This document shows positions 3,104-62,828 of a stretch of 64,000 bases of DNA, piece after piece. Each line of letters starts with the position of its first letter. Positions within the stretch are counted from its first letter, which is position 1. The stretch spans positions 320,163-384,162 of the forward strand of contig CBDCDL010000001.1 of NCBI GenBank assembly GCA_965215345.1, read 5' to 3'. The position numbers and the translations under genes are program-made. The notes under the pieces were generated by a model, which made no database searches, had not been told where the DNA came from, and saw only the letters and a list, made by a program, of their open reading frames with translations. Origin of the DNA: Spirochaetia bacterium (lineage in GTDB: Bacteria > Spirochaetota > Spirochaetia > SZUA-6 > Bin103).

Positions 3104-5224
3104 TCAGGCGCAGGTCGTCTCGCTGGCCGGATGATCGCCATAGAAGCGCGTGTCGGTCTTCGCCAGGTGGCGCAGCCGGTCGGACGGCGCGAAGCGCTCG
3201 CCGTGGCGTCCGCGCAACTCGTTCAGGAGCGCTACGATCCGGTCCGGGCCGTGGTCGTCGGCGTGTGCCAGGATGCCGCCGCGATCCTGTGGGAATCCGG
3301 TGCCCAGAATCATGATCATGTCCAGCGGCATCGGCTCGTTGACGATGCCTTCCTCCAGACAGCGGCTCGCCTCGTTGGCCATGAGCGCCAGGCAGCGGTG
3401 CAGGTCGTCGGCAACCGCCGGACGGCGGCTGCCGGGGCGTCGCAGCGCGTGGGCGGCCGGATTGGGGTGCGCGTCTCGGCCGGCGCCGTAGGCATGGAAT
3501 CCCTGGCCGCTCTTGCGGCCGAGCATGCCCGCGTCGGACAGCCCCCGCGCCAGTTGCGGGCACCGGTACCGGTCGCCGAACGAGCGCTCCAGCGATTCTG
3601 CGATCTTGACCGTGACGTCGATGCCGATCTCGTCCATGAGCCGGTACGGCCCCATCGGCAGGCCGAACTCCCTGGCGAAGCGGTCCAGGCCGTCGAGGTC
3701 GTCGATCCCGTCGTCTTCGGCCAGGTGGAGCGCCTCCAGGAGGTAGGGAAACAGCACGCGGTTGGAGACGAACCCCGGCCGGCCGCCGACCACGATCGGC
3801 GTCTTCCCCAGGTTCCGGGCGAGGGCCACGGCGGTCGCCAGCACCGCGTCCGTGGTCGCCGGCGCCCGCGCGATCTCCACCAGCGGCATGCGGTTCACGG
3901 GATTGAAGAAGTGCACGGCCACGAACCGCTCCGGCCGAGCGAGCACGCCGGCCAGCTCGTCGACCGGCAGCGACGAGGTGTTGGTGGCGATGATGGCATC
4001 GGTGGCGACCCGCCCTTCCAGATCCCGCAGCACCCGCTTCTTGAGGTCGGGGTCCTCCGTCACCGCTTCGATCACCAGGTCTGCGTCGGCCAGCGCGGCG
4101 AGGTCGGTGGTCGGCTCCATCCGGGCGAGCTTCGCTTCCACGTCCTCCACAGTCATCCGTCCGCGCTGCATCGGGAAGTCGTACACCGCGCGGGCCGCGG
4201 CCATACCCCGATCGAGCCGGCCCTGGTCGACGTCGCGCATGGTGACCGGCAGGCCGGAGTCGCAGAGCGCCCAGGCTATGCCGGCCCCCATGGTGCCCGC
4301 GCCGAGCACGGCCGGGCGCTCGACCGGCAGCGGGGCGGCGGAGAGACCCCAGCGCTCCTTCCGGAGCCGGTCGCGATTGAAGAACATCCGCATCAGGTTG
4401 CGCCCGGCGCGGCTGCGTACCCGGTCGACGAAGGCGGCCCGCTCCACGTCCAGGCCGGCGGCCATCGCCGTTCCGGCCGTGCGGACGACGACCTCCAGCG
4501 CGGCCAGCGGCGCTTCGTCGTGCAGCCGCCCGCGGGCGACAAGCTGCCGTGCCGCCTCGGCCTGCTCATCGCCGACTGCGGGCGCCGGCATGCGCAGGTC
4601 CGGCCCGTCGGGCGCGGGCGCCGCCGCCAGCAGCTCGTCCAGGGCCCGGTCCAGGTCCTCGCGCGCCGCGCAGGCGGTCGCCAGTCCCAGCTCCACGGCG
4701 CGCGGTCCGTCCACGGGCCGACCGCTGCAGATCATCCGCAGGGCCTGCGCCACCCCCACCAGCCGCGGCAGCCGCTGGGTGCCGCCCCAGCCGGGGATCA
4801 GGCCCAGGGTCACCTCCGGCAGGCCCAGGGCGCAGCGGCGATCGTCGGAGACCAGCCGCCATGTCGTCGTCATGGCGAACTCCAGCCCGCCGCCCAGGCA
4901 GGCGCCGTCGATCACGCTGACGGTCGGCACCCGCAGGGCCGCAAGCCGGCTGAACAGGCGCTGTCCGCGGCCGATGAAGGCGTCCGCCACCTGTGGATCG
5001 GAGAGCGTGCGCAGTTCGCCGATGTCGGCGCCGGCGATGAAGCAGCCCGGCTTGGCGCTGCGGAACACCACCACGCGGACGTCCTGGTCGGCCGCGATCT
5101 CGTCGAGCAGGCGCTCCAGTTCGTCCAGTACCGGGGTAGAGAAGGTGTTCACCTTCGAGCCCGGCTGATCGAAGAGCACTTCCAGGCGTCCGTCGGGCCG
5201 CCGCTGCGTGGTGATGCTCGCCAT
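3104..5224 (-). CDS. Fatty-acid oxidation multifunctional enzyme (FadB/FadJ-type): enoyl-CoA hydratase domain followed by a 3-hydroxyacyl-CoA dehydrogenase domain.
   Basis: 706 aa. Crotonase signature FIAGADIGE...GGGLEFAM; NAD-binding GXGXXG LGAGTMGAGIAWAL; C-terminal 3HCDH region. Antisense ORFs 3131..5269 and 3762..5168 are GC artefacts. Confidence 0.9.
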   Translation of the reverse strand: MASITTQRRPDGRLEVLFDQPGSKVNTFSTPVLDELERLLDEIAADQDVRVVVFRSAKPGCFIAGADIGELRTLSDPQVADAFIGRGQRLFSRLAALRVPTVSVIDGACLGGGLEFAMTTTWRLVSDDRRCALGLPEVTLGLIPGWGGTQRLPRLVGVAQALRMICSGRPVDGPRAVELGLATACAAREDLDRALDELLAAAPAPDGPDLRMPAPAVGDEQAEAARQLVARGRLHDEAPLAALEVVVRTAGTAMAAGLDVERAAFVDRVRSRAGRNLMRMFFNRDRLRKERWGLSAAPLPVERPAVLGAGTMGAGIAWALCDSGLPVTMRDVDQGRLDRGMAAARAVYDFPMQRGRMTVEDVEAKLARMEPTTDLAALADADLVIEAVTEDPDLKKRVLRDLEGRVATDAIIATNTSSLPVDELAGVLARPERFVAVHFFNPVNRMPLVEIARAPATTDAVLATAVALARNLGKTPIVVGGRPGFVSNRVLFPYLLEALHLAEDDGIDDLDGLDRFAREFGLPMGPYRLMDEIGIDVTVKIAESLERSFGDRYRCPQLARGLSDAGMLGRKSGQGFHAYGAGRDAHPNPAAHALRRPGSRRPAVADDLHRCLALMANEASRCLEEGIVNEPMPLDMIMILGTGFPQDRGGILAHADDHGPDRIVALLNELRGRHGERFAPSDRLRHLAKTDTRFYGDHPASETTCA

Positions 5225-6232: not shown

Positions 6233-7174
6233 TTACCAGATGCCCTCACCGCGGACACGGATCGACAGCTTGTTGATCGCGAGCACGACCCCGAACGATA
6301 CGAGATTGTTGAGCAGACCGATCGCGGTTCCATAGGAGAACTCGCCTCCCTGGATGCCGCGACGATACACGTAGGTGGCGATGACGTCGGCGGTCTCGTA
6401 GATGCCGGGGTTCTGCATCAGGAAGGCTTTCTCGAAGCCGACCTGCACGACGTTGCGGGTGGCCAGGATGAACAGCACCACCATCGTCGGCATGATGCCG
6501 GGCACCGTGATGAAACGCACCTGCTGCAGGCGCCCGGCGCCGTCGATCCTGGCCGATTCGTAGAGCTCGACGCTGATGCCGGCCATCGCTGCCAGGTAGA
6601 TGATCGTCCCCCAGCCGACGTCCTGCCAGACGCCGGAGGCGACGTACAGTGGGCGGAACCAGGCAGGGTCGCTCAGGAAGTCTGGCTGGAAACCGAAGCG
6701 GTTGGCCATCTGTGTCACCAGGCCGTCGAAGCTGAAGAACTGGTAGATCAGGCCGACGACGATGACCACGGCGATGAAGTGTGGCAGGTAGGAGATCGAC
6801 TGCACGACCCGTTTGAACCAGCGCACGCGCATCTCGTTCAACAACAGCGCGAAGATGATCGGCGCCGGGAACCCGAAGGCCAGGTTGAGCGCGCCGAGCA
6901 GCAGCGTGTTGCGCACCAGGCGCCAGAGAAAGGGATCGGCCAGGAAGTCGTTGATGTACTTCAGGCCGATCCACTCGCCTCCGAAGAACCCGTCCAGCGG
7001 GGTGTAGCGCTTGAAGGCGATGGTGATGCCGTAGATCGGCACCCAGTGGAAGACGAACGACCACAGGATGACGATGCCGATCATGACGTACAGCGCGGGA
7101 GCCTGTCGGATCGAGCGGACGATCCCTGCGTGCCGCCGAGCGGCGCTGTTCACTGCGACGGCTTGCTGACTCAT
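6233..7174 (-). CDS. Carbohydrate ABC transporter permease (CUT1 family, LplB/MalF-like).
   Basis: 313 aa. C-terminal motif YRRGIQGGEFSYGTAIGLLNNLVSFGVVLAINKLS is typical of LplB-type permeases. Its start abuts the stop of the downstream permease. Confidence 0.85.
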   Translation of the reverse strand: MSQQAVAVNSAARRHAGIVRSIRQAPALYVMIGIVILWSFVFHWVPIYGITIAFKRYTPLDGFFGGEWIGLKYINDFLADPFLWRLVRNTLLLGALNLAFGFPAPIIFALLLNEMRVRWFKRVVQSISYLPHFIAVVIVVGLIYQFFSFDGLVTQMANRFGFQPDFLSDPAWFRPLYVASGVWQDVGWGTIIYLAAMAGISVELYESARIDGAGRLQQVRFITVPGIMPTMVVLFILATRNVVQVGFEKAFLMQNPGIYETADVIATYVYRRGIQGGEFSYGTAIGLLNNLVSFGVVLAINKLSIRVRGEGIW

Positions 7175-25809: not shown

Positions 25810-26838
25810 CTACCAGACCCCGTACTCGCTGTAGCGGCGCACGATCTGATTGGCGCCGACCAGGACGACCAAGCCGACCGCGTTCTGGAAGAGCTGCACG
25901 GCGGTGGCGTAGGAGTAGCGCGCCCCTTCGATGCCGGAGCGGTACACCAGCGTCTCGAACACGTCGACCACCTCGTAGACGTTGGAGTTGTACAGATTGA
26001 AGATCGGGTCGAAGCCGAACTCCAGGATGTTGCCGACGCTGAGCAGGAACAGGATCGTGATCACCGGCACCAGCGCCGGGATGGTGATGTGGATGACGTT
26101 CTGCCAGCGGTTGGTGCCGTCGATGGCCGCGCTTTCGTAGAGCTGGGGGTCCACCCCCGACAGCGCCGCCAGAAAGACGATCGTCCCCCAGCCGACGCTC
26201 TGCCAGGTCGTCACGGCAATGATCAGGCCTCGGAACAGCTCCGGGGTGGTCAGCACCGGGAACGGCTCCATCCCCACCTGCTCCATCAGGTAGGGAATCG
26301 TGCCGCTCTGCATCGACAGAAGTTCCCTGACGATGCCGCTCAGGACGACCCAGGAGAGGAAGTGCGGGAGGTAGCTGATCGACTGCACGGTGCGCTTGTA
26401 CGGGGTCACGCGCACCTCGTTGAGCAGCAACGCCAGGATGATCGGCGCCGGGAAGGAAAAGACCATCCGCAGGACGGCCAGGATCACCGTGTTGCGCAGC
26501 ACGCGCCAGAAGAACGGGTCGTTGAAGACCCAGTCGAACCACTTGAAGTTGTTCCAGGTGCTGCCCAGGACGCCCTTGACGATGTTGTAGTCGACGAAGG
26601 CGATGCTGACCCCGTACATGGGGATGTACTTGAAGACGAACAGCAGCACCACCGCCGGCGCCAGCAGGACGTAGAAGTCCCGCATGCGCCACACGCGCCG
26701 CACCGTCTGCTTGCGCAGGACCTGCTTGAGGTAGGCGGCGCGCTCCTCCTCGGTGGCGAGGCTGTCGTAGACGCCCACGCTCGGGGCGGGGGCCGCCGAC
26801 GACGCCTGATCGCGTCGTTCGGTGGAGAGGTCAGCCAT
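25810..26838 (-). CDS. Carbohydrate ABC transporter permease (LplB-like).
   Basis: 342 aa. C-terminal YRSGIEGARYSYATAVQLFQNAVGLVVLVGANQIV. Confidence 0.85.
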   Translation of the reverse strand: MADLSTERRDQASSAAPAPSVGVYDSLATEEERAAYLKQVLRKQTVRRVWRMRDFYVLLAPAVVLLFVFKYIPMYGVSIAFVDYNIVKGVLGSTWNNFKWFDWVFNDPFFWRVLRNTVILAVLRMVFSFPAPIILALLLNEVRVTPYKRTVQSISYLPHFLSWVVLSGIVRELLSMQSGTIPYLMEQVGMEPFPVLTTPELFRGLIIAVTTWQSVGWGTIVFLAALSGVDPQLYESAAIDGTNRWQNVIHITIPALVPVITILFLLSVGNILEFGFDPIFNLYNSNVYEVVDVFETLVYRSGIEGARYSYATAVQLFQNAVGLVVLVGANQIVRRYSEYGVW

Positions 26839-26950
26839 CGATCGTTCGGTGTCGCTGTGGGGTCATCACGGGGTGCGGAACGCCGGTGGCGACCCTACCG
26901 GTTCGGGTGCTGCGCGTCAACGCCGCATCACCAGACAACCAGACACCAGA

Positions 26951-27934
26951 TCACCAGATCGAGTAATCGTTGTAGCGGCGCACGACCTGGTTGGCCGCGA
27001 TCAGCAGCACGAACCCCACGACGTTCTGGAACAGGTTGATGGCGGTCGCGTACGAGTATTTGGCGCCTTCGATGCCGGACCGGTAGACCAGCGTCTCGAA
27101 CACGTCGGAGACCGACACCACCACGTCGTTGTACAGGTTGAAGATCTGATCCCATCCCTGTTCCAGGATGTTGCCGATTTGCAGCAGCAACAGGATCGTC
27201 ATGACCGGGATCAGGGCCGGCAGCGTGACGCGCAGCGCCATCTGCATGCGGTTGGCGCCGTCGACGCTGGCGCTCTCGTACAGCTCGGGGTCGATCCCGG
27301 ACAGCGAGGCCAGGTAGATGATCGAACCCCAGCCGACGCCCTGCCAGATGCCGGTCGCCACCAGCAGCGCCCGGAACGTCGGGATGTTGGTCAGGAAGCT
27401 GACGGGCTCCAGCCCGGCGAGAGCCATGAGGTAGGGGACGGCGCCGGTCTGCATCGACAGCAGCTCCCTGACCAGGCCGCCCAGGACGACCCAGGAGAGG
27501 AAGTGCGGGAGATAGCTGACCGACTGGACCGCTCGCTTGTAGGGGTCGTTGCGGATCTCGTTGAGCAGCAGCGCAAGGATGATCGGCGCCGGGAATCCGA
27601 TCGCCAAGCGCAGCAGGCTGAGGATCACCGTGTTGCGCAGCACGCGCCAGAAGAAGTAGTCGTTGAAGACCCAACTGAACCACTTGAAGTTGTTCCAGGT
27701 GCTGCCCAGGACGCCCTTGACGATGTTGTAGTCCACGAACGCGATGCCGACGCCGTACATGGGGATGTACTTGAAGACGACCAGCAGCGCCACCGCCGGC
27801 ACCAGCAGGACGTAGAAGGGGCGCATCCGCCACGCGCGCTCCAGGGTCTGCTGCCGGTCGAAGCGGCGCGTCGCCTTCGGGTCGGCCGCCGGCTCCTCGT
27901 GCGTGGTCGGTGACAGGGTGGGGGACTCGCTCAT
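26951..27934 (-). CDS. Second LplB-like ABC permease, a tandem paralog of 25810..26838.
   Basis: 327 aa. Same motif set: YRSGIEGAKYSYATAINLFQNVVGFVLLIAANQVV. Confidence 0.85.
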   Translation of the reverse strand: MSESPTLSPTTHEEPAADPKATRRFDRQQTLERAWRMRPFYVLLVPAVALLVVFKYIPMYGVGIAFVDYNIVKGVLGSTWNNFKWFSWVFNDYFFWRVLRNTVILSLLRLAIGFPAPIILALLLNEIRNDPYKRAVQSVSYLPHFLSWVVLGGLVRELLSMQTGAVPYLMALAGLEPVSFLTNIPTFRALLVATGIWQGVGWGSIIYLASLSGIDPELYESASVDGANRMQMALRVTLPALIPVMTILLLLQIGNILEQGWDQIFNLYNDVVVSVSDVFETLVYRSGIEGAKYSYATAINLFQNVVGFVLLIAANQVVRRYNDYSIW

Positions 27935-28053: not shown

Positions 28054-28317
28054 GTGATAACCAGGATCACGGGAAAGAACCAGGTGACCGTCCCCGCCCG
28101 CATCGTGGCCATGGAGGGGATGGAGCCGGGGACGCGGCTGGAGTGGATACCGACGGATCGCGATCACGTGATCGAGGTGCGGGTCCTCCCGAACATCGCT
28201 GGCGTCGCGTCCACTCTGCGCGGGCGGGGCGCCAGATACGCGAAGCAGGCGGGCGGAGCCGTGGACCGACTGATGGGCGATCGCCGGCGTGAAGACCGCG
28301 AGGCAGAGGCTCGGTGA
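28054..28317 (+). CDS. AbrB/MazE/SpoVT-fold antitoxin (VapB-like).
   Basis: 87 aa, GTG start. ITGKNQVTVPARIV swapped-hairpin motif. Putative promoter TTGACA...(17)...TACATT at ~28021-28049. Confidence 0.75.
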   Translation: MITRITGKNQVTVPARIVAMEGMEPGTRLEWIPTDRDHVIEVRVLPNIAGVASTLRGRGARYAKQAGGAVDRLMGDRRREDREAEAR

Positions 28318-28745
28318 GTGCCGTCACCCACGTGCTGGATACGTCTGCCGTTCTGGCGCACTACTTCGACGAGCCCGGCGCGGAGATCGTCGATCGGCTC
28401 TGGCAGGACTCCCGCAACCGAATCGGAATCTGCGTGCTCACGGTGCCGGAACTGCGAGGGCGGCTGGAGGCGGAGATCGAGGACGAGGAAGAGATCGACC
28501 GCGCCTTCAACGAGTACGTCGATGCACTCACGTCGAGCCTTGTCGTGGACAGAACGGTCGCTGAGAGCGCCATGGTGCTTCGCCGGGAGAGCGCGGAGCG
28601 ATTGCCGTTGACGGACGCGATCATCGCCGGCTGCGCCCACGCACTCGCGGCCGTATTGGTTCATCGAGACCGGCACATGGAGTCCATTTCGCAGGCTTTG
28701 GTGGCTCAGATCGTGCTCCCACGCCGCTCCGATTCCGCAGGATGA
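28314..28745 (+). CDS. PIN-domain toxin VapC.
   Basis: 143 aa. 4-nt overlap with the antitoxin. VLDTSAVLAHYFDEPGAE...LPLTDAIIAGCA. Confidence 0.8.
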   Translation: MSAVTHVLDTSAVLAHYFDEPGAEIVDRLWQDSRNRIGICVLTVPELRGRLEAEIEDEEEIDRAFNEYVDALTSSLVVDRTVAESAMVLRRESAERLPLTDAIIAGCAHALAAVLVHRDRHMESISQALVAQIVLPRRSDSAG

Positions 28746-28785
28746 CTCCGGGGACGACTCACCGTAGAAGCCCTGCTTCAGGATC
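28720..28785 (+). repeat. Copy 1 of a ~66-nt imperfect direct repeat. It spans the vapC 3' end and stop.
   Basis: CACGCCGCTCCGATTCCGCAGGATGACTCCGGGGAC... is repeated at 29483-29549. The first 36 nt are identical, with ~7 mismatches afterwards. Confidence 0.6.
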
Positions 28786-29476: not shown

Positions 29477-30776
29477 TCAGATCACGCCGCTCCGATTCCG
29501 CAGGATGACTCCGGGGACAACTCGCTGTAGGGAACTCTGCTTCAGGATCGCGCGAAGACGCCGCGGCCGCACGATTCTCCGTCGGCTTCCACCGGCTCGC
29601 AGGCCGCCATCTCCCAGCCGTGGAACACGACGCCCAAGCCGACGTGCCGTACCGACGGATGACGGCGGTGCAAGCCTTCGTCCGCCAGGTAGCGGCGCAC
29701 CTGCAGCACCGCCTCCCGCGTCTTCTCCGCCAGCACGGATGCGTGCACGGCCTCGCTCCGCTTTCAGGTACTTGAGCTCGATCACGTAGCCGTACGCCAC
29801 GCCGGGGTAGCGAGCCAGGAACGGCTCCAGGTAGAGGTCGGCGTACCCCTTGTTCAGCTCCTGCTCCGAGTGCAACCGACGGAGAACACCTCCACGTCCT
29901 GGTAGGCGTCGCGCAGGTAGCCGTTGTACCACTCGCGCATCACCTCCAGCGCGGCGTCCACGTCCTGGTCGAACACGCCGTGGTCGCGGTACGTCGCAAG
30001 CAGGCCGCGCACCTCCGCCTCCGTGAAGCCGACCATCTCGTTGAACTTCGGCTTCAGACTGATGTTGCTGCCGATGTTGAAGCCGCTGGTCACGTCGTCC
30101 AGGGTGATCGGCGACACGCCCGTGATGAACAGGCGCTCCAGGCCGCCGTCGCTTCGCGCCGTCGCCGCCTTCAGGGTGGCGAAGAAGTTGCGTAGAAGCC
30201 GCCGCCGTGGGTGAACGACTCGTATGCGTCGGCGCCGCGGTATGCCAACACGGTGTTGGCGAAGTTGTCGTACTCGTCGATGAGCACGTACAGCGGTATG
30301 CCCCGGTCGCCGGCGTACCGAAACAACTCGTTGAGCTTGCCGTCGATCGCCGGCAACGAGAGGATGCGCCGCCTCACATCTTCGCCGAACAGGTCGTGAT
30401 TCCGCTCCAGTGTGCCGCGAAGCTCGGTGTGGCAGTAGGTCTCGAAGCGTTCCTGCAAGGTTTCCAGGGTGTCGTCGAACGCCGAGAAGTCGAAGCGCAG
30501 GACGACGTAGCGATTGCGGTGCTCGGTCGGGTCGGCGCCGATGTCGGTGCCGGCGAAGACCGCCTCGAATGCGTCGGCGCGGGTGCGGTCGTAGTAGTTC
30601 TCCAGCAAGGAGACCCAGCAGGTCTTGCCGAAGCGCCGGGGACGGATCAGCACGGCGTAGTCCACGTTCTCCAGCTCGCGCAGAAAGCGGGTCTTGTCCA
30701 CGTAGAGGCGCTGTTGCAGCCGAATCCTCTTGAAGCTGGCCACGCCGTACGGAATGCGGGGATAGGAGGCACGCAT
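29477..30776 (-). pseudogene. Frameshifted pseudogene of an AAA-ATPase-like plus PD-(D/E)XK nuclease (PDDEXK_9-type) protein. It is a distant paralog of the intact tandem copies at 54-58.9 kb.
   Basis: Three consecutive minus-strand ORFs (30776->30171, 30117->29854, 29932->29477) in different frames. The first reads MRASYPRIPYGVASFKRIRLQQRLYVDKTRFLRELENVDYAVLIRPRRFGKTCWVSLLENYYD... (N-terminal family signature). The last reads YVIELKYLK (nuclease core). Confidence 0.7.
29483..29549 (+). repeat. Copy 2 of the ~66-nt direct repeat.
   Basis: See copy 1. Confidence 0.6.
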
Positions 30777-46373: not shown

Positions 46374-49300
46374 GTGAGTGAACAGGACAAGGTTACGACG
46401 CCGAAAGACACCGCTCAGCGCAACCGATGGCGCGCCCTGATTGCTGGTTGTCTGGAGATCAAGGCGCGGTTCGAAGGAACGTTCGTGACGCTTGCGAAGA
46501 TCCTGAATACCCCCGTTCTGCTGCCGTTGATCGGCGGGTTGACATTCGTCGTCGTGTTTCATTTCGCGTACTCCGGCGTGGACGATGATCTGTATCAGGC
46601 TCGTGACGACGGTGTCATCACGCTGAGTCATGCCCGGAATCTCGTGGAATACGGGTTCATCGGAGTGAATCCTTCTGGAGGCCGTGTCGAGGGATACTCC
46701 GCGCCGGTTCAGTTCTTCCTGTTCGCCGCCGTGTACGCCGTTACGGGCACGGGCTACGCCGCTTACGCGACGGCACAGACCGTAGTCGCCACCTTCCTGC
46801 TGGGTGCGCTGTTCATACTGTTCTTCAGGAAGCGGAAGGTTCCGAGCCTGATCCTGACAGGGCTGGCTGCGCTGTTGCTCGCGTACGCCCGGCCGTTCAT
46901 CGAGTGGCATGGTTCGGGAATGGAGAACGCGATCACGCACGTACTCTTCCTGGCCACCGTGCTGACACTGGTCTCGTTTGTGCGGATGGAGCGGATCATC
47001 TACCCGCTGTCCTGCGTCGTGTTTCTGGCGACGATTTCGAGAATCGAGAGCATCTTCCACGTCGGCCCGCTGCTGGTCGTGTTCGGCGTATTCTGGCTGC
47101 TCGCGCTCCGGGACTGGCGCGGCATCCGCTTTGCGTTCGTCGTGCTAGGGCTGTGGGCCCTGTTCCAGGTGTGGCGGTATCACTATTTCGGCGAGTTACT
47201 GCCCAATACCGCCCACGCCCAGGGAATCTCCGTGTTCGACAACCTGCGCCCGTGGCTACGGTTGGACGTGGATCACATGCAGCGCGCTGCCACCCGTGCC
47301 CGGGACATGCTCGAGGTGCACGGCGGTATTGTGCTGCTGTTGGCGCTTCCAGCCACGCTAGTGGTCTCCCGCCGCCGGGAGACCGTCCTGTTGCTGCTCC
47401 TCATAGGTACTTTGGTCCTGACCGCCGCGCTTAACGAGTCGGTGTTCGGTCGCGACCGGATCGACCCGAACCGCACGACGACCCATGTGGCGGTGTTCTC
47501 AGCGCTGGGCAGCGCCCTGTTGCTGTTCGCCTGCCTTGACAACCGCCGGCGTGCATTGTGGGCCGCCCCGGCGCTCGGGCTGGTCGTGGTTGTCGTGTTC
47601 GGTATGAACGTCGTTCCTCCCTATCACTTGGGCTGGTCGACTGCCTCTTTCGAAATCCATAGAGACAAGTTCGCCGACATCGCGGCGGCAGAAGATCTAC
47701 CCCGAGCGACCGTAGCGAATCCTGATCTGGGCGCGATGAGCTACCACAAGCAGTTCAACATCGTGGATCTAGGGCGCATCGGTTCACCGATCATGGCGCG
47801 GACGTCGGGACCTGTCAGAGCCGACTATTTATTTGATTTCGCGGCCCCCGACATCATCGAGAGTCACTCCGCGTGGTCATGTGGTTACGATGGGGAGCTG
47901 TTCTCCGACCCCCGATTCGAGAAGCGGTATCAACCCGTTGAGACTTGGGTAACGGACTGGACCAGGAAGTGGTGTACATCCAACCCGGAATCCCAGTCCG
48001 GCTTCTGGATTCGTTCCGCGATTCTCAAGTCTTCGGAGTCCGCGGAGCGGCAGCTCATCGACCGGATGGCCGCGGACCCTTCCGCCGAGCGGCTCCGCGA
48101 CGAGCTGGCGAAGTGCCAGGCGATAGAGGACCCTGATTATCAGAATTGCGTGTACGTCGCCAGAACGGCTTGGCGGTTCCTGCCGGAACTGCGAAAGCAG
48201 CGCCAAGTCGATGCGCTCGACGATATCTTTTCGTCGAGCCTCAGCGCCGCCTTTGACCGCTCTCTCATCAACGGCCACCGCGACGGCCAGGCTCATCGCG
48301 ACGCCGTCGAGTTCATATGGGACAACTACCTGCGTGAGATCACAGACCGACAGCCGACCGTCAGCTCCGAGTTCGACGTGTATCTCGACGGGGAGGAGCT
48401 GATCTACGTCAAGCGGGGGTGCAGCGAGGAGGCCGTCACGCTGCCGTTCTTCGTGCACCTGATGCCGGTCGACCGGAGCGACCTGCCCGAGCATCGCAAG
48501 CAATACAAGTTCGACAACCTGGACTTCAGGTTCGAGGATGCCGGCGGCGTCAGAGAGGGCGATGTGTGCGCGGTAACGCGGAGGCTCCCGGACTACGAGA
48601 TCGCCGAGGTCAGAACCGGCCAGTACGTCTCCGGCGGCGAGCAGACGTGGAAGGTGAAGTTCCAGCCGGGTCAGACGCCGCCGGTACGCTCCCTGCTGGA
48701 CCGCATCGAAGCGCTGGACGGACCAATCATCAGCTCGGAGTTCGACGTATACCTCGACGGAAAGGAGCTGATCTACGTCAAGCGGGGGTGCAGCGAGGAG
48801 GCCGTCGCGCTGCCGTTCTTCGTGCACCTGACGCCGGTCGACCGGAGCGACCTGCCCGAGCATCGCAAGCAATACAAGTTCGACAACCTGGACTTCAGGT
48901 TCGAGGATGCCGGCGGCGTCAGAGAGGGCGATGTGTGCGCGGTAACGCGGGAACTCCCGGACTACGAGATCGCCGAGATCACAACCGGCCAGTACGTCTC
49001 CGGCGGGGAGCAGACCTGGAGGGTGGCATTCTCGACGGGCGGCACACCGCCACAGCCACAGCAGATCGCGACAGCGGCAGCGCAGCACGTCGGCACGGTC
49101 AGCGAGCAGCGTGAGACCGAGGAGGTCGTCGGCATCGACTCCCTCGTGGAACGCATCGAAGCGCTGGGAGGCCCCGTCGTCAGCTCGGAGTTCGACGTAT
49201 ACCTCGACGGAAAGGAGCTGATCTACGTCAAGCGGGGGTGCAGCGAGGAGGCCGTCACGCTGCCGTTCTTCGTGCACCTGATGCCGGTCGACCGGAGCGA

Positions 49301-59902: not shown

Positions 59903-60961
59903 TCATGCCGGATGCCGTTCGCGGAGCTGTCCGGCGGCGGAGCACATCGCCTTGAGCTTCAGGTACGCCTCGTCGACCGGGATCGGGTTCTGCACCGACG
60001 GGGCGAAGCCGCAGTCGGGGTTGAGCACGATCCGCTCCTTGTCCACGTAGCGCATGGCGGCCTCCACGCGAGCCACGATCGTCTCCGGGGACTCGATGGC
60101 CTCGTCGCAGTGGTCGACGCAGCCGAGCCCCAGGCGCGCGTCCCGGTGGAAGCCGGCCAGCGACTGGATGCCGCCCGCGTCCGGCGTGGCGTACTCCATC
60201 AGGATGGTGCCGACCCGCGCGCGGGCCAGGGCCGGCATGATCGGGTCGTAGGACCCGGAGGTGCTGTGCCGGTGCTGGAAGTGGGCGTGGCACAGATGCA
60301 TGGCGGTGTCGATGCCGGCGACCCCTTCCAGGGTGCGGTTGAGCAGGTCGATGCAGAGCTCCATCTCCGGCTCCGGATCGCCGATGCCCTCGCCGGCGCG
60401 GAAGTCCGGGTCGACCATCACGCTCAGCCACGGCTCGTCGAGCTGGACGACGTCGGCGCCGGCGGCGCGCACCGCCTCGATCTCCCGGCGCAGGATCGGC
60501 ACCATCGCCTCCATCAGGTCCTGGCGTCGGGGGTAGGCGTCGCGCGAGTGGTCGGGGTGCCACATGCGCCGGCCGATGATGTACGGCGCCGGCAGCGTGA
60601 TCTTGAGCCGCCGCGTGGTGCGCGGGCGGGCGAACGCCACCTCCTCGGCGGCGATCGGTCGGTGGTACTCGAGCGGCTCGACCACTGCGGGGTAGGGAAT
60701 GTTGCTCATGTTGAGGTCGTTGCGGAAGCCGCGCACCCGCTCGGCGACCACCTTGACGTAGCTCTCGCGCCGCCACTCACCGTCGGTGACCTCGTCCAGG
60801 CCGGCGCGTTCCTGCAGGGAGATCGCCATGGCGACGGCCCGGTCCAGGTGGGGGGCGGCCTCCTCCTCGGAGATGCGGCCGTCCTTGCGGTCCAGGATCA
60901 GCTCGCGCAGCCACTCCGGCCGCGGCAGGCTGCCGACGACGGTGGTGGGAAACAGCGCCAT
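59903..60961 (-). CDS. Cobalamin-independent methionine synthase MetE C-terminal-domain-like protein (UROD/MetE-like family, short form).
   Basis: 352 aa. Strong RBS AGGAGG. Hallmark N-terminus TTVVGSLPRPEWL; Zn-ligand region H..H...C...E..CGF (LCHAHFQH ... PDCGFAP). Confidence 0.8.
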   Translation of the reverse strand: MALFPTTVVGSLPRPEWLRELILDRKDGRISEEEAAPHLDRAVAMAISLQERAGLDEVTDGEWRRESYVKVVAERVRGFRNDLNMSNIPYPAVVEPLEYHRPIAAEEVAFARPRTTRRLKITLPAPYIIGRRMWHPDHSRDAYPRRQDLMEAMVPILRREIEAVRAAGADVVQLDEPWLSVMVDPDFRAGEGIGDPEPEMELCIDLLNRTLEGVAGIDTAMHLCHAHFQHRHSTSGSYDPIMPALARARVGTILMEYATPDAGGIQSLAGFHRDARLGLGCVDHCDEAIESPETIVARVEAAMRYVDKERIVLNPDCGFAPSVQNPIPVDEAYLKLKAMCSAAGQLRERHPA

Positions 60962-61015
60962 ACTCAGGTACCTCCTGTGTCATGTCTCTACGCGGGTGGT
61001 TGCTGGCCTCTTCGG

Positions 61016-61231
61016 TCAGGCGGTCACCGGTGATAGGGTATATACCTTGCCGTGTGCCGTGGCCGACGCGATGTCTCCTCGCCGCAGTGATTCTCTTACG
61101 TCGTCGAGCTTGTATGCATCTTCCTGGGATAGATATGGCGACCACTCATGGTCGGTGGTCAGCACCTCTACCTCCACTTCAGCAATATAGCGACCCTCAT
61201 GGATCAGTTTCCGGCGGATACGCTTCTTCAT
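61016..61231 (-). CDS. Small protein, a possible partner of the DUF4258-like gene in a two-gene TA-like pair.
   Basis: Internal Met MKKRIRRKLIHEGRYIAEVEVEVLTTDHEWSPYLSQEDAYKLDDVRESLRRGDIASATAHGKVYTL. 4-nt overlap with the upstream gene. Family not recognised. Confidence 0.35.
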   Translation of the reverse strand: MKKRIRRKLIHEGRYIAEVEVEVLTTDHEWSPYLSQEDAYKLDDVRESLRRGDIASATAHGKVYTLSPVTA

Positions 61232-61422
61232 CGGATTCTCCTTCGGAGGTCGTCGAGTCTGTCTCTCTGCACAACGAGCACGCACGGGCCTTTTGGGTAT
61301 TCAGGATAATCCTCCGCGACGGTGGCTCGAAAGACTCCATTCACAACTTCCCGAGCGGTAAGCCCGTCTTCTGCGAGCTCATCGTATCCGTGTTCTGATA
61401 CACGCACGTCACCTTTCATACG
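61228..61422 (-). CDS. DUF4258-like small protein (candidate toxin component).
   Basis: Start taken at the internal Met MKGDVRVSEHGYDELAEDGLTAREVVNGV...AEDYPEYPKGPCVLVVQRD, which resembles DUF4258 consensus (H-A-R/ERGI..EV..V). The 17 upstream codons of the ORF fall in the insertion-boundary repeat and are rejected. Confidence 0.45.
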   Translation of the reverse strand, partial: RMKGDVRVSEHGYDELAEDGLTAREVVNGVFRATVAEDYPEYPKGPCVLVVQRDRLDDLRRRIR

Positions 61423-61433
61423 CGCGCGGCGGC

Positions 61434-61448
61434 GCTCACCGCCAGCGG
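61434..61448 (+). repeat. Copy A of a 15-bp perfect direct repeat, GCTCACCGCCAGCGG.
   Basis: Exact match to 62814-62828. The two copies sit precisely at the edges of the low-GC ATPase gene segment. Confidence 0.5.
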
Positions 61449-61463
61449 CTCGGCCCGTGGTGC

Positions 61464-62699
61464 TCAGCGCCAAGCCGAGGAAGTCTCGCGGTCCTGGCGC
61501 CGGATGAACTTGCCCAGAAGTGGCACGGCAAACGAATACCTCCCATGCCGGTTCTTGAACACAAGGCCCTGCGCGGCCAGCGCCACGAGCATCTGGTTGA
61601 CGTGGCTGCTGCTGAACGGTTTGCCGGAGGATCGTTTCGATTTCTCGACGACCTCCTGAACGGTGAACTCCTCGTCACAGCTCGGCAGGTGGGATATCAC
61701 GGAGAGCAGTTCCCGCTGGCGGTCCGTCGCGCGCGCCCAGCGGCCCGCGAAGAAGTCGGTATCCAGTTTCCGTTCGATCTCGGCGGCAGGCACCAGCGCC
61801 GGATCGCCCCGGTCGATCTTCTGAATAGAGGTGTCGTACACCTCTCTGCAGATGAACTGAATGAAGTATGGATATCCGCCTGACATGTCGATGATCAGAT
61901 CCACGGAGTTGCCGTCGAGATGTACTGGACAGTCGGCGTCATCCACCGGCCGGCGTATTGCGTCTTCACTCTCTTCCCTGTTCAGACTGTGCAGAAACAC
62001 GACTTTGAACATTCGCTCGGAAAAGGTCCGCGCCTCCACGAGCTTGGGGAACAGGGTCGGCAGGCCGGTCAGGACCAGCATCAGAGGGAGTCCCTTTCGT
62101 TGCAGCGACTGGAAGGTGTCGAGCAGCAGGGACAGCGGATACTGCTCCTTGGCCGACTGGTCGGCGAGGTTCTGTGCTTCGTCGTAGGCGAAGACGACCC
62201 CGCGCACGCTCCCTGATCGCGAGAGGGCGGCCCAAGTGATTTCCAGCACGGCCTTGAGCTTGTCGAGGGCGAGACCGGCAGTGCGGTGGTAGATGTCGAG
62301 GAGTTCGTCATAGCCAAGCGTGCGCTGGATGGTCTGTGCGGGCGCGGCGAATCCCGCGGGCCGTACCTCGTCGGTCGCAATGATCACGCCGGCGGTGACC
62401 GGCGCCAGATCGGTGCAGAGCCGTATGGCCATGGTTTCCTCGCCTACGCTGGTGGACTCCGAGATGTCGGTTCCGACCCAGACCCAACCCCGGCGGATCG
62501 CCTCCGGCTTGAACGAATCGAGCAGAACCGTCTTGCCTACCCCTCGAAGTCCTGTGAGAACCATGTTCTCCATGATCGTCGTCTGTCCGAGCAGCCGCAG
62601 AAACTCCCGGCGCTCCTCCTGCCGCCCGGCCAGGTACGGCGGTGGGTGGCCTGCCCCAGGGCGAAACGGGTTCGAGAAGTCGGTCATGGCGATGCTCAC
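61464..62699 (-). CDS. ATP-binding protein of the archaeal-type ATPase family (pfam01637/AAA-like, STAND-adjacent), with a C-terminal winged-helix-like region.
   Basis: 411 aa. FSNPFRPGAGHPPPYLAGRQEERREF...LTGLRGVGKTVLL (P-loop); VVFAYDEAQNL (Walker B region). Lower GC than its neighbours. AT-rich promoter upstream. Confidence 0.7.
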   Translation of the reverse strand: MSIAMTDFSNPFRPGAGHPPPYLAGRQEERREFLRLLGQTTIMENMVLTGLRGVGKTVLLDSFKPEAIRRGWVWVGTDISESTSVGEETMAIRLCTDLAPVTAGVIIATDEVRPAGFAAPAQTIQRTLGYDELLDIYHRTAGLALDKLKAVLEITWAALSRSGSVRGVVFAYDEAQNLADQSAKEQYPLSLLLDTFQSLQRKGLPLMLVLTGLPTLFPKLVEARTFSERMFKVVFLHSLNREESEDAIRRPVDDADCPVHLDGNSVDLIIDMSGGYPYFIQFICREVYDTSIQKIDRGDPALVPAAEIERKLDTDFFAGRWARATDRQRELLSVISHLPSCDEEFTVQEVVEKSKRSSGKPFSSSHVNQMLVALAAQGLVFKNRHGRYSFAVPLLGKFIRRQDRETSSAWR

Positions 62700-62711
62700 C
62701 TACGTCAATCC

Positions 62712-62748
62712 TGTAGATTGAATTTAGTCTAATATATTTATTTAGTCA
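62712..62748 (-). promoter_or_regulatory. Sigma-70-like promoter for the ATPase gene: TTGACT, a 17-nt spacer, then TAAATT.
   Basis: Minus-strand read TTGACTAAATAAATATATTAGACTAAATT in an AT-rich 60-bp island within GC-rich DNA, ~20-50 nt upstream of the ATG. Confidence 0.45.
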
Positions 62749-62813
62749 ACGGAATCATAGGATGTCAGGTTCGGGATGCGGATGCCGCCGTTCCACGGGC
62801 CCCCCCGAGCGCG

Positions 62814-62828
62814 GCTCACCGCCAGCGG
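62814..62828 (+). repeat. Copy B of the 15-bp direct repeat GCTCACCGCCAGCGG. It overlaps the stop codon of the NHL-repeat gene.
   Basis: See copy A. Confidence 0.5.

Follow-up and report, generated by a model that had tools for sequence, protein, structure and literature searches.

In archaea, cdc6 genes adjoin origin boxes, and Orc1/Cdc6 proteins (1fnn, 2qby, 1w5t) share with the archaeal ATPases SSO1545 (2fna) and PAB2304 (2qen) a length of about 350–400 residues and an architecture of AAA+ domain at the N terminus, helical lid and winged helix at the C terminus. Phage morons are self-contained units of promoter and gene whose base composition is unlike that of their surroundings. At e14 and phage 21, both in icd, the att site is a second copy of a protein gene's 3' end. 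We describe here an AAA+ ATPase gene with features of each of these systems. It lies in a 64,000-nucleotide stretch of DNA from a Spirochaetia bacterium (contig CBDCDL010000001.1; the whole stretch is called the window), between an NHL-repeat gene and a MetE-like gene, and is bracketed by two copies of a short direct repeat.

The window ATPase, as modelled, resembles the archaeal proteins in size and domain order, and like archaeal cdc6 genes its gene adjoins short DNA boxes that are repeated within AT-rich sequence. Unlike Orc1/Cdc6, the family is bacterial or phage-borne, the boxes coincide with the −35 and −10 of a promoter, and there is no evidence of origin function. As in morons, promoter and gene form a self-contained unit of distinct base composition, and in L009–L011 (related loci are numbered with an L) a P22-like prophage carries this unit between its coat/scaffold and portal genes, in the opposite orientation. 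Unlike morons, the module, promoter boxes included, recurs in the chromosomes of several phyla, often with long flanking repeats, which to our knowledge are not a described moron feature. As at e14 and phage 21, gene 3' ends are duplicated, the copies differ synonymously and homology ends at the stop codon; those elements measure 10–40 kb and encode an integrase, whereas the ATPase unit has 1.35–1.8 kb and one gene.

Parallels are also offered by homology-facilitated illegitimate recombination (HFIR; PMC3240628), by the displacement-type cassette arrays of type VI secretion system (T6SS) effector and immunity genes in Vibrio cholerae (PMC5361080) and by merodiploids arising from transformation (PMC3784515). 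HFIR and the T6SS arrays are likewise reported to take in foreign DNA by a homology anchor on one side, to leave remnants or duplicates of the conserved gene end behind and to need no element-encoded recombinase. In the T6SS arrays, as described there, related cargo is swapped at a single locus, whereas here one conserved cargo is found behind many unrelated genes and the mechanism is one that we infer.

The 15-mer flanking the ATPase gene, GCTCACCGCCAGCGG, is probably the exact core of a duplication of at least 28 nt around a foreign ATPase module that was captured via short-homology recombination. The duplicated segment would comprise the NHL stop codon and the first ~15 nt of the NHL–MetE spacer. 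The module, 1.35 kb long, consists of a sigma-70-type promoter preceded by a short leader and followed by a single gene, whose product is an ORC/Cdc6-like AAA+ ATPase with a winged helix at its C terminus. Insertion would have gone through recombination, with a short stretch of homology to the upstream gene's 3' end as the anchor and with no role for an end-recognising transposase or an integron. The route may have been one-ended HFIR, or Campbell-type single-crossover integration of a circularised fragment that carried one repeat copy. Both routes would leave the gene end duplicated on each side, and recombination between the repeats would lead to precise loss and restore a single-copy empty site. 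All genes at the locus are on the minus strand, and the features are as follows.

62816 to past 64000, minus: NHL-repeat gene, 3' part (relatives: 702 aa), the target gene with the duplicated stop region
62806–62828: repeat copy at the NHL stop (exact 15-mer 62814–62828), reading on the minus strand CCGCTGGCGGTGA, a 5-nt deletion, GCCGCGCTCG
62750–62805, minus: GC-rich leader from the repeat copy to the −35, conserved only within Spirochaetia alleles
62718–62749, minus: promoter region
62744–62749 and 62721–62726, minus: −35 and −10 of the promoter TTGACT-17-TAAATT
62736–62745 (CTAAATAAAT) and 62718–62727 (CTAAATTCAA): degenerate palindromic boxes, 18 nt apart
61464–62687, minus: AAA_16 ATPase gene, 407 aa, ATG at 62687
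61421–61448: second repeat copy, 28 nt, reading on the minus strand CCGCTGGCGGTGAGCGCCGCCGCGCGCG
61228–61419, minus: apparent remnant of a DUF4258 toxin, 63 aa, part of a toxin–antitoxin (TA) pair
61016–61231, minus: antitoxin-like open reading frame (ORF), 71 aa, intact
59903–60961, minus: MetE-like (Meth_synt_2) gene, the conserved gene bounding the other side of the hotspot

As a first-pass annotation of the window had reported, the 15-mer occurs exactly at 61434–61448 and 62814–62828, and the right-hand copy overlaps the stop of the NHL gene. No third exact copy is present in the window, and the right-hand copy covers the terminal NHL codons R-W-R and the TGA stop. The same annotation proposed an insertion with duplication of a 15-bp target. 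An insertion bracketed by duplicated target is what we find, with a duplication of at least 28 nt and an NHL-side copy that lacks 5 nt. These 5 nt (GCGCC) are missing in the window and in its 99%-identical relative L001; the undeleted NHL-side copy reads CGCTGGCGGTGAGCGCCGCC in L003, L006 and L007. The second copy begins 15 nt past the ATPase stop and runs unbroken into the native NHL–MetE spacer up to GTATG. Bar a few substitutions, it matches the copy in L003 and L006 and the single copies at the empty sites of L024 and L029–L032.

Four isolated exact 15-mer direct pairs less than 2 kb apart occur in the GC-rich window, so the GCTCACCGCCAGCGG pair on its own is at chance level. Its significance comes from the conservation of both copies, at greater length, in relatives and from the single copy at empty sites. 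Five further sites in the window resemble the 15-mer at 1–2 mismatches. At the sole 1-mismatch site (46001) the sequence falls within a long ORF, and the 15-mer was accordingly rejected as a recurrent cassette boundary.

In L003–L008, whose ATPases are 88–90% identical to that of the window, the gene order is NHL, ATPase, MetE-like and GDSL lipase, without the TA pair, and the distance from the ATPase to MetE is only 72 nt. Both repeat copies are kept in these loci, exact over 21 nt in L003 and over about 28 nt with two mismatches (alignment A1). Species-representative genomes were scanned with the MetE-like protein. NHL–MetE–GDSL synteny was found in nine 'Spirochaetia bacterium' metagenome-assembled genomes (MAGs). 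The occupancy of the spacer varies as follows.

L024, L029, L030, L031, L032: empty site, with the NHL stop, one repeat copy and MetE; spacer of 42–45 nt, e.g. CGCTGGCGGTGAGCGCTGCCGCGCGCGTATGCTCG
L003–L008: ATPase only
L026: ATPase only, different allele
L027, L028: TA pair only
L025: antitoxin only
Window: ATPase and TA pair both

The single-copy empty site anticipated by the first-pass annotation is thus present in five related species, with the NHL stop joined to the MetE-like gene and not, as had been expected, to the DUF4258 gene. One of the five is the closest relative, L024 (NHL 95% identical). Neighbour-joining trees of NHL and MetE gave three clades, each with occupied and unoccupied members. 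Beside the site, the window flanks are closest to those of the empty L024, and the L026 flanks to those of the empty L029 and L032. Cassette import with large flanking tracts was considered and rejected, as none was seen at 150-nt resolution. Since the flanks stay sister-like up to the site, presence and absence change without long flanking import, which fits either a precise loss when the two copies recombine or the precise arrival of the cassette by itself.

The L026 ATPase is 79–83% identical to the remaining Spirochaetia alleles, nearly the distance of a phage copy. Its leader, trailer and C-terminal tail differ from those of the other Spirochaetia alleles, and the repeat limits are slightly shifted. 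Our reading is that the site acquired a cassette for a second time in L026 or had its allele replaced there. The NHL–MetE spacer in this Spirochaetia clade is a polymorphic insertion hotspot, and the ATPase module is an accessory insertion in it. The surroundings of the hotspot in relatives are variable and defence-like, with PLD-like and SNF2 helicase genes, GmrSD, AAA_15/21 and an N6/N4 methyltransferase (L007/L008 11670–17224; L008 1–539).

Flanking repeats were surveyed across the family by comparing 640–700 nt upstream of the gene with 700 nt downstream, with 600 mismatched-pair controls as the null. Ten of 78 loci lay above the null maximum, with repeats of 23–137 nt spaced 1.38–1.82 kb apart; among them are L014 (58 nt, perfect), L106 (40 nt), L167 (63 nt), L153 (113 nt), L148 (137 nt) and L173 (23 nt, perfect). 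Often it is the upstream gene's 3' end that is present twice. The left copy in L148 is the final 137 nt of an ABC-F gene and that in L153 the final 113 nt of a class IV aminotransferase gene, so that direct repeats overlap a target-gene 3' end in these two loci as well as at the NHL stop region. In both L148 and L153 the repeat ends at the stop codon, the two copies carry different stop codons, and all interior differences between copies (11/11) are synonymous third-position changes. Under neutral decay of an orphan copy, the probability of an all-synonymous outcome is about 0.42^11 = 7e-5, with a per-difference synonymous probability of 0.42 that we derived ourselves. It follows that the copies diverged while each lay within a working gene, one of them in a related donor genome.

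Two further repeat arrangements were seen. In L014, an older pair of ~380-nt repeats (3864–4247 and 6688–7056; 83–84% identical, 2.8 kb apart) lies outside the perfect 58-nt repeats; read by eye, these are putative transposase C-terminal fragments. In the window, a 48-nt direct repeat (28720–28767 and 29483–29530; 94%, 763 nt apart, both copies ending in TAG) surrounds a minus-strand DUF4143-like gene fragment and resembles the ATPase cassette in that a gene end is duplicated around an insert. A VapBC-like pair, AbrB-like at 28054–28317 and PIN-like at 28314–28745, lies just upstream.

Outside the Spirochaetia hotspot, the module of promoter and gene occurs without fixed neighbours in about 80 different contexts, phage contigs included, and was found in 19 viral contigs and 80 metagenome loci. 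In a Spirochaetaceae MAG it lies between DHDPS and a Cys/Met-metabolism gene, and in another context among small hypothetical genes and IS fragments. Clustering of 161 neighbour ORFs gave 131 clusters with no recurrent partner gene, the multi-member clusters representing the same context sampled repeatedly, so the ATPase gene has no fixed partner. Only the promoter and the ORF are shared between contexts; no conserved cassette ends were found across them, nor any additional small gene or RNA in the stretch from repeat to promoter. For the L106 context, no exact match to an empty site was found among viral contigs.

No recombinase in or beside the unit was found in the gene tables of the loci or by neighbour clustering, and the gene tables of the Spirochaetia relatives list no integrase within 8 kb of the ATPase. 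There is no room for an attC, with only 15 nt between the ATPase stop and the repeat. The ATPase unit resembles integron cassettes in its single-gene size and in the presence of two accessory units, ATPase and TA, side by side. Unlike integron cassettes, which are promoterless and end in attC, it has its own promoter, and neither attC nor an integrase. Unlike an insertion sequence (IS), a miniature inverted-repeat element (MITE) or a transposon, it has no terminal inverted repeats common to the contexts, and its repeats measure 23–137 nt rather than being a fixed short duplication. The absence of conserved ends, recombinase, attC and terminal repeats, together with the variable length and position of the repeats and the allele-like differences between copies, favours recombination-mediated capture over transposition. 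Among the origins offered by the first-pass annotation, capture fits best, and an integron-like or miniature mobile element is not upheld.

Several points weigh against this explanation. No flanking repeat was found at 68 of the 78 loci, and the repeats may be a by-product of some transfers and not the rule. Lengths of 23–28 nt are at the lower limit for RecA-type recombination (minimal processing segments). In the Spirochaetia repeat the coding part amounts to only 10–13 nt, which gives the donor-allele test no power, and the locus is explained equally well by a primary insertion that newly duplicated 28 nt of target. A free circular form was not found, in that no short contig had a terminal overlap, which is a weak test.

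The promoter TTGACT-17-TAAATT, already recognized in the first-pass annotation, is the sole sigma-70-like match within 2 kb, compared with 0.3 expected. The two palindromic boxes lie over its −35 and −10, with the family consensus TTG.CTAAATTTAG-N8-CTAAATTTAG. At least one TAAATTTA box is present in 81 of 84 distinct upstream regions, the background density being 0.09 per 150 nt, and the spacing of successive boxes in these regions is exactly 18 nt in 63 of 82 cases. Within the 1.64 Mb scanned, two-box sites were confined to ATPase cassettes or their remnants. The TA-only loci L027 (5441–5468) and L028 (5305–5332) carry a two-box promoter, CTGAATTCAG-N8-CTAAATTTAG, ahead of a full-length DUF4258 toxin, and in L025 one box is left, fused to the ribosome-binding site of the antitoxin. 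As the other two-box sites in the scanned 1.64 Mb occur only at ATPase cassettes, the boxes in these three loci were taken as cassette remnants. A candidate remnant of the ATPase 3' end upstream of the toxin in L027 and L028 was rejected because the stretch is the N-terminal coding region of the full-length toxin, and only the two-box promoter counts there as a trace of the ATPase cassette. Perfect or near-perfect CTAAATTTAG-N8-CTAAATTTAG sites were also observed 0.15–1.3 kb downstream of the ATPase gene in L124 (4992–5019) and L188 (3845–3872), with no ATPase ORF behind them; they may be what is left of a second cassette, or additional binding sites.

The tight co-occurrence of the gene with two palindromic boxes suggests that the winged helix most likely binds both boxes and that the ATPase would be an autoregulated, nucleotide-dependent DNA-binding switch. 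Against such binding, predicted from co-occurrence, stand the two-box promoters of L027 and L028, which have no ATPase ORF. Searches of the literature on the box sequence and on Cdc6-like defence ATPases returned nothing relevant.

The interval between the repeats holds one real gene, on the minus strand, as first proposed, with a corrected start. The ATG at 62687, giving 407 residues rather than 411, is preferred because homologs of 401–407 residues begin with M-A/T-D/E-F-S-N-P-F and because AGGTGA lies 9 nt upstream; the closest homolog (99% identical) starts at the position matching this ATG. Exact look-up of the protein as 411 and as 407 residues found no record of it. Pfam AAA_16 (PF13191) matched residues 23–211 above the gathering threshold (42.3 bits, cutoff 32.6) and is present in all listed homologs. 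Walker A (GLRGVGKT, G46–T53) and Walker B (FAYDEAQ, D169–E170) are invariant in the 32-sequence alignment A3 and conform to the AAA+ patterns GxxGxGKT and hhhhDE. The protein also matched PHROG 6841, a family of unknown function. More than 7,760 homologs were found, the best 120 of them 73–99% identical, and clustering at 50% identity gave 197 representatives at E ≤ 1e-30, among them relatives with 30–50% identity. No cluster names were found for these homologs.

The AlphaFold2 (AF2) model (mean pLDDT 75) shows an AAA+ core with a helical lid, an inserted beta-hairpin region (residues 75–135) and a winged helix at the C terminus. In Foldseek its best PDB folds are SSO1545 and PAB2304, with Orc1/Cdc6 and ORC subunits next, with E values of 3e-9 to 1e-5 and a probability of 1.0, but with TM-scores of only 0.3–0.44 and sequence identities of 12–18%. 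For Orc1/Cdc6 the probability is likewise 1.0 but the TM-score 0.3–0.37, on a model of that mean pLDDT. No Pfam or NCBIfam match to Cdc6/ORC domains, no NCBIfam equivalog and no match in a PDB sequence search were obtained for the window ATPase. PF01637 (ATPase_2), the family type of SSO1545 and PAB2304, gave no match at E ≤ 0.01, and one homolog (P0102) has a precomputed PF01637 match. Judged from the model, the likeness to archaeal ATPases is at the fold level only, and the label 'archaeal-type' given at first holds in that sense and not at the level of the PF01637 profile. The assignment to STAND ATPases is dropped, as the protein stops after the winged helix at residue 407 and no repeat, sensor or effector domain was found.

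The occurrence in phages and in variable islands suggests a conflict-related role, exclusion or defence; this is a conjecture and the weakest step of the argument. The phage-moron position and the variable, defence-rich neighbourhood in relatives weakly support it. Against it, the window ATPase had no match to PADLOC v2 defence models at E ≤ 0.01, which leaves a role in defence conjectural.

The alternative that survives best, although we consider it unlikely, is a site-specific recombinase encoded elsewhere and acting in trans, as for cis-mobilisable or satellite integrative elements, with the repeats as attL and attR and an att site that mimics the target gene 3' end, so that integration restores the gene. 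Phages integrate into icd or tRNA genes in this way, with an att that restores the gene end. Such a recombinase would account for repeats that overlap the upstream gene 3' end and stop at its stop codon, for copies that differ only synonymously, for the two ATPase alleles that share one site but differ slightly in their repeat limits (L026 versus L003) and for gain and loss that are precise and without imported flanks. However, no integrase lies inside the repeat-bounded units or within 8 kb in the Spirochaetia loci; of the two marks of an integrase-mediated islet, repeats overlapping the target 3' end are present and a recombinase in or beside the element is not. Each context has its own target gene and repeat sequence, no stretch that could act as arm sites is conserved from repeat to promoter or from stop to repeat, and every cassette would require a tailor-made att site.

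Insertion at widely staggered breaks, giving long and variable target duplications, is less likely again. A transposase acting in trans (IS1634-like) or end-joining at offset nicks could be responsible, and the IS1634 transposase does make long variable repeats. The range of repeat lengths (23–137 nt), the perfect repeats of L014 and L173 and the extension of the Spirochaetia repeat 15 nt past the stop codon into the spacer agree with this proposal. Against it stand the lack of terminal inverted repeats and conserved ends and the 11/11 synonymous differences in L148 and L153, which are unexpected (~7e-5) for a fresh duplication followed by neutral decay of an orphan copy. An imperfect terminal inverted repeat in the window (12/12 nt, 5-nt gap; 61449–61460 and 62793–62809, just inside the copies) is missing from L003, L006 and L026 and was judged to be chance. 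An inverted near-copy of the repeat at 61713–61735 (plus strand, within the ATPase gene; 11 nt exact, 23 nt at 83%) was also rejected as a codon-driven coincidence, because it codes for the invariant ATDRQRE motif, which L003 spells with different codons.

There is a slim chance that the module is a minimal selfish unit made of an ORC/Cdc6-like initiator-type ATPase and two cognate boxes, existing as a tiny circular replicon or promoting its own capture behind host genes. On that improbable account, integration and excision would use short homology with gene 3' ends without a recombinase of its own, and the boxes would be an origin-like or recruitment site and not a plain operator. The remaining alternative, a chance match in GC-rich DNA beside an ordinary resident gene, might draw on the four isolated 15-mer pairs and the near-matches in the window, but has next to no probability and is refuted by copies that are conserved and longer in relatives and by single-copy empty sites, the gene moreover being missing from the closest relative and present elsewhere in unrelated contexts.

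Capture by short-homology recombination remains our preferred explanation. In the neighbouring TA pair, the DUF4258 profile matched with 28.5 bits (cutoff 25) over positions 2–48 of 71 only. Compared with the 98-aa form in L028, the window ORF lacks ~25 N-terminal and ~30 C-terminal residues, and it is joined to the native spacer directly after GTATG, which supplies its ATG. The 71-aa antitoxin-like ORF is 87–90% identical to the versions in L025, L027 and L028 and has no family match in Pfam, NCBIfam or PHROG. Judging from these sequences, the window DUF4258 ORF is apparently a remnant and not an intact toxin, and the TA pair a variable, decayed co-tenant of the hotspot. The first-pass annotation had the ATPase delivered next to a TA module; the pair is itself a variable insert, missing from the ATPase-only relatives and partial in the window. 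The lower GC that it reported for the cassette is real (0.62 in the ATPase gene versus 0.69–0.75 in the flanking genes). The low-GC zone extends from ~60980 to 62800 and covers the TA pair, so that the left repeat copy lies inside the zone and not at its edge.

Other repeats were observed in the window. Three tandem paralogs at 54060–58859 (period 1585–1616 nt; 460–530 aa; weak AAA_22 match) are found directly upstream of the GDSL lipase gene. A ~300-nt repeat is present eight times (48359–50296 and 52135–53253; alternating 369- and 450-nt periods, 74–100% identical) within very long ORFs, presumably of a repetitive surface protein. Two adjacent paralogous genes at 25812–27664 (DNA 76–79% identical, period 1141 nt) resemble membrane permeases.

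For annotation, these results make the NHL–MetE spacer of the Spirochaetia clade an insertion hotspot and the window DUF4258 ORF a probable remnant. They turn an anonymous 'AAA family ATPase' into a defined and testable object, a very widespread single-gene module with a conserved two-box control region and a recognisable insertion scar. At 90% identity the module family falls into more than 7,700 clusters, and members from distant hosts and phages are 73–80% identical. The synonymously differing duplicated gene ends provide a measure of how single genes that carry their own promoter spread between related genomes without a recombinase of their own, a process still poorly documented for morons and defence islands. 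If the ATPase does bind its boxes, they would give simple access to a large and so far uncharacterised group of ORC/Cdc6-like proteins in bacteria.

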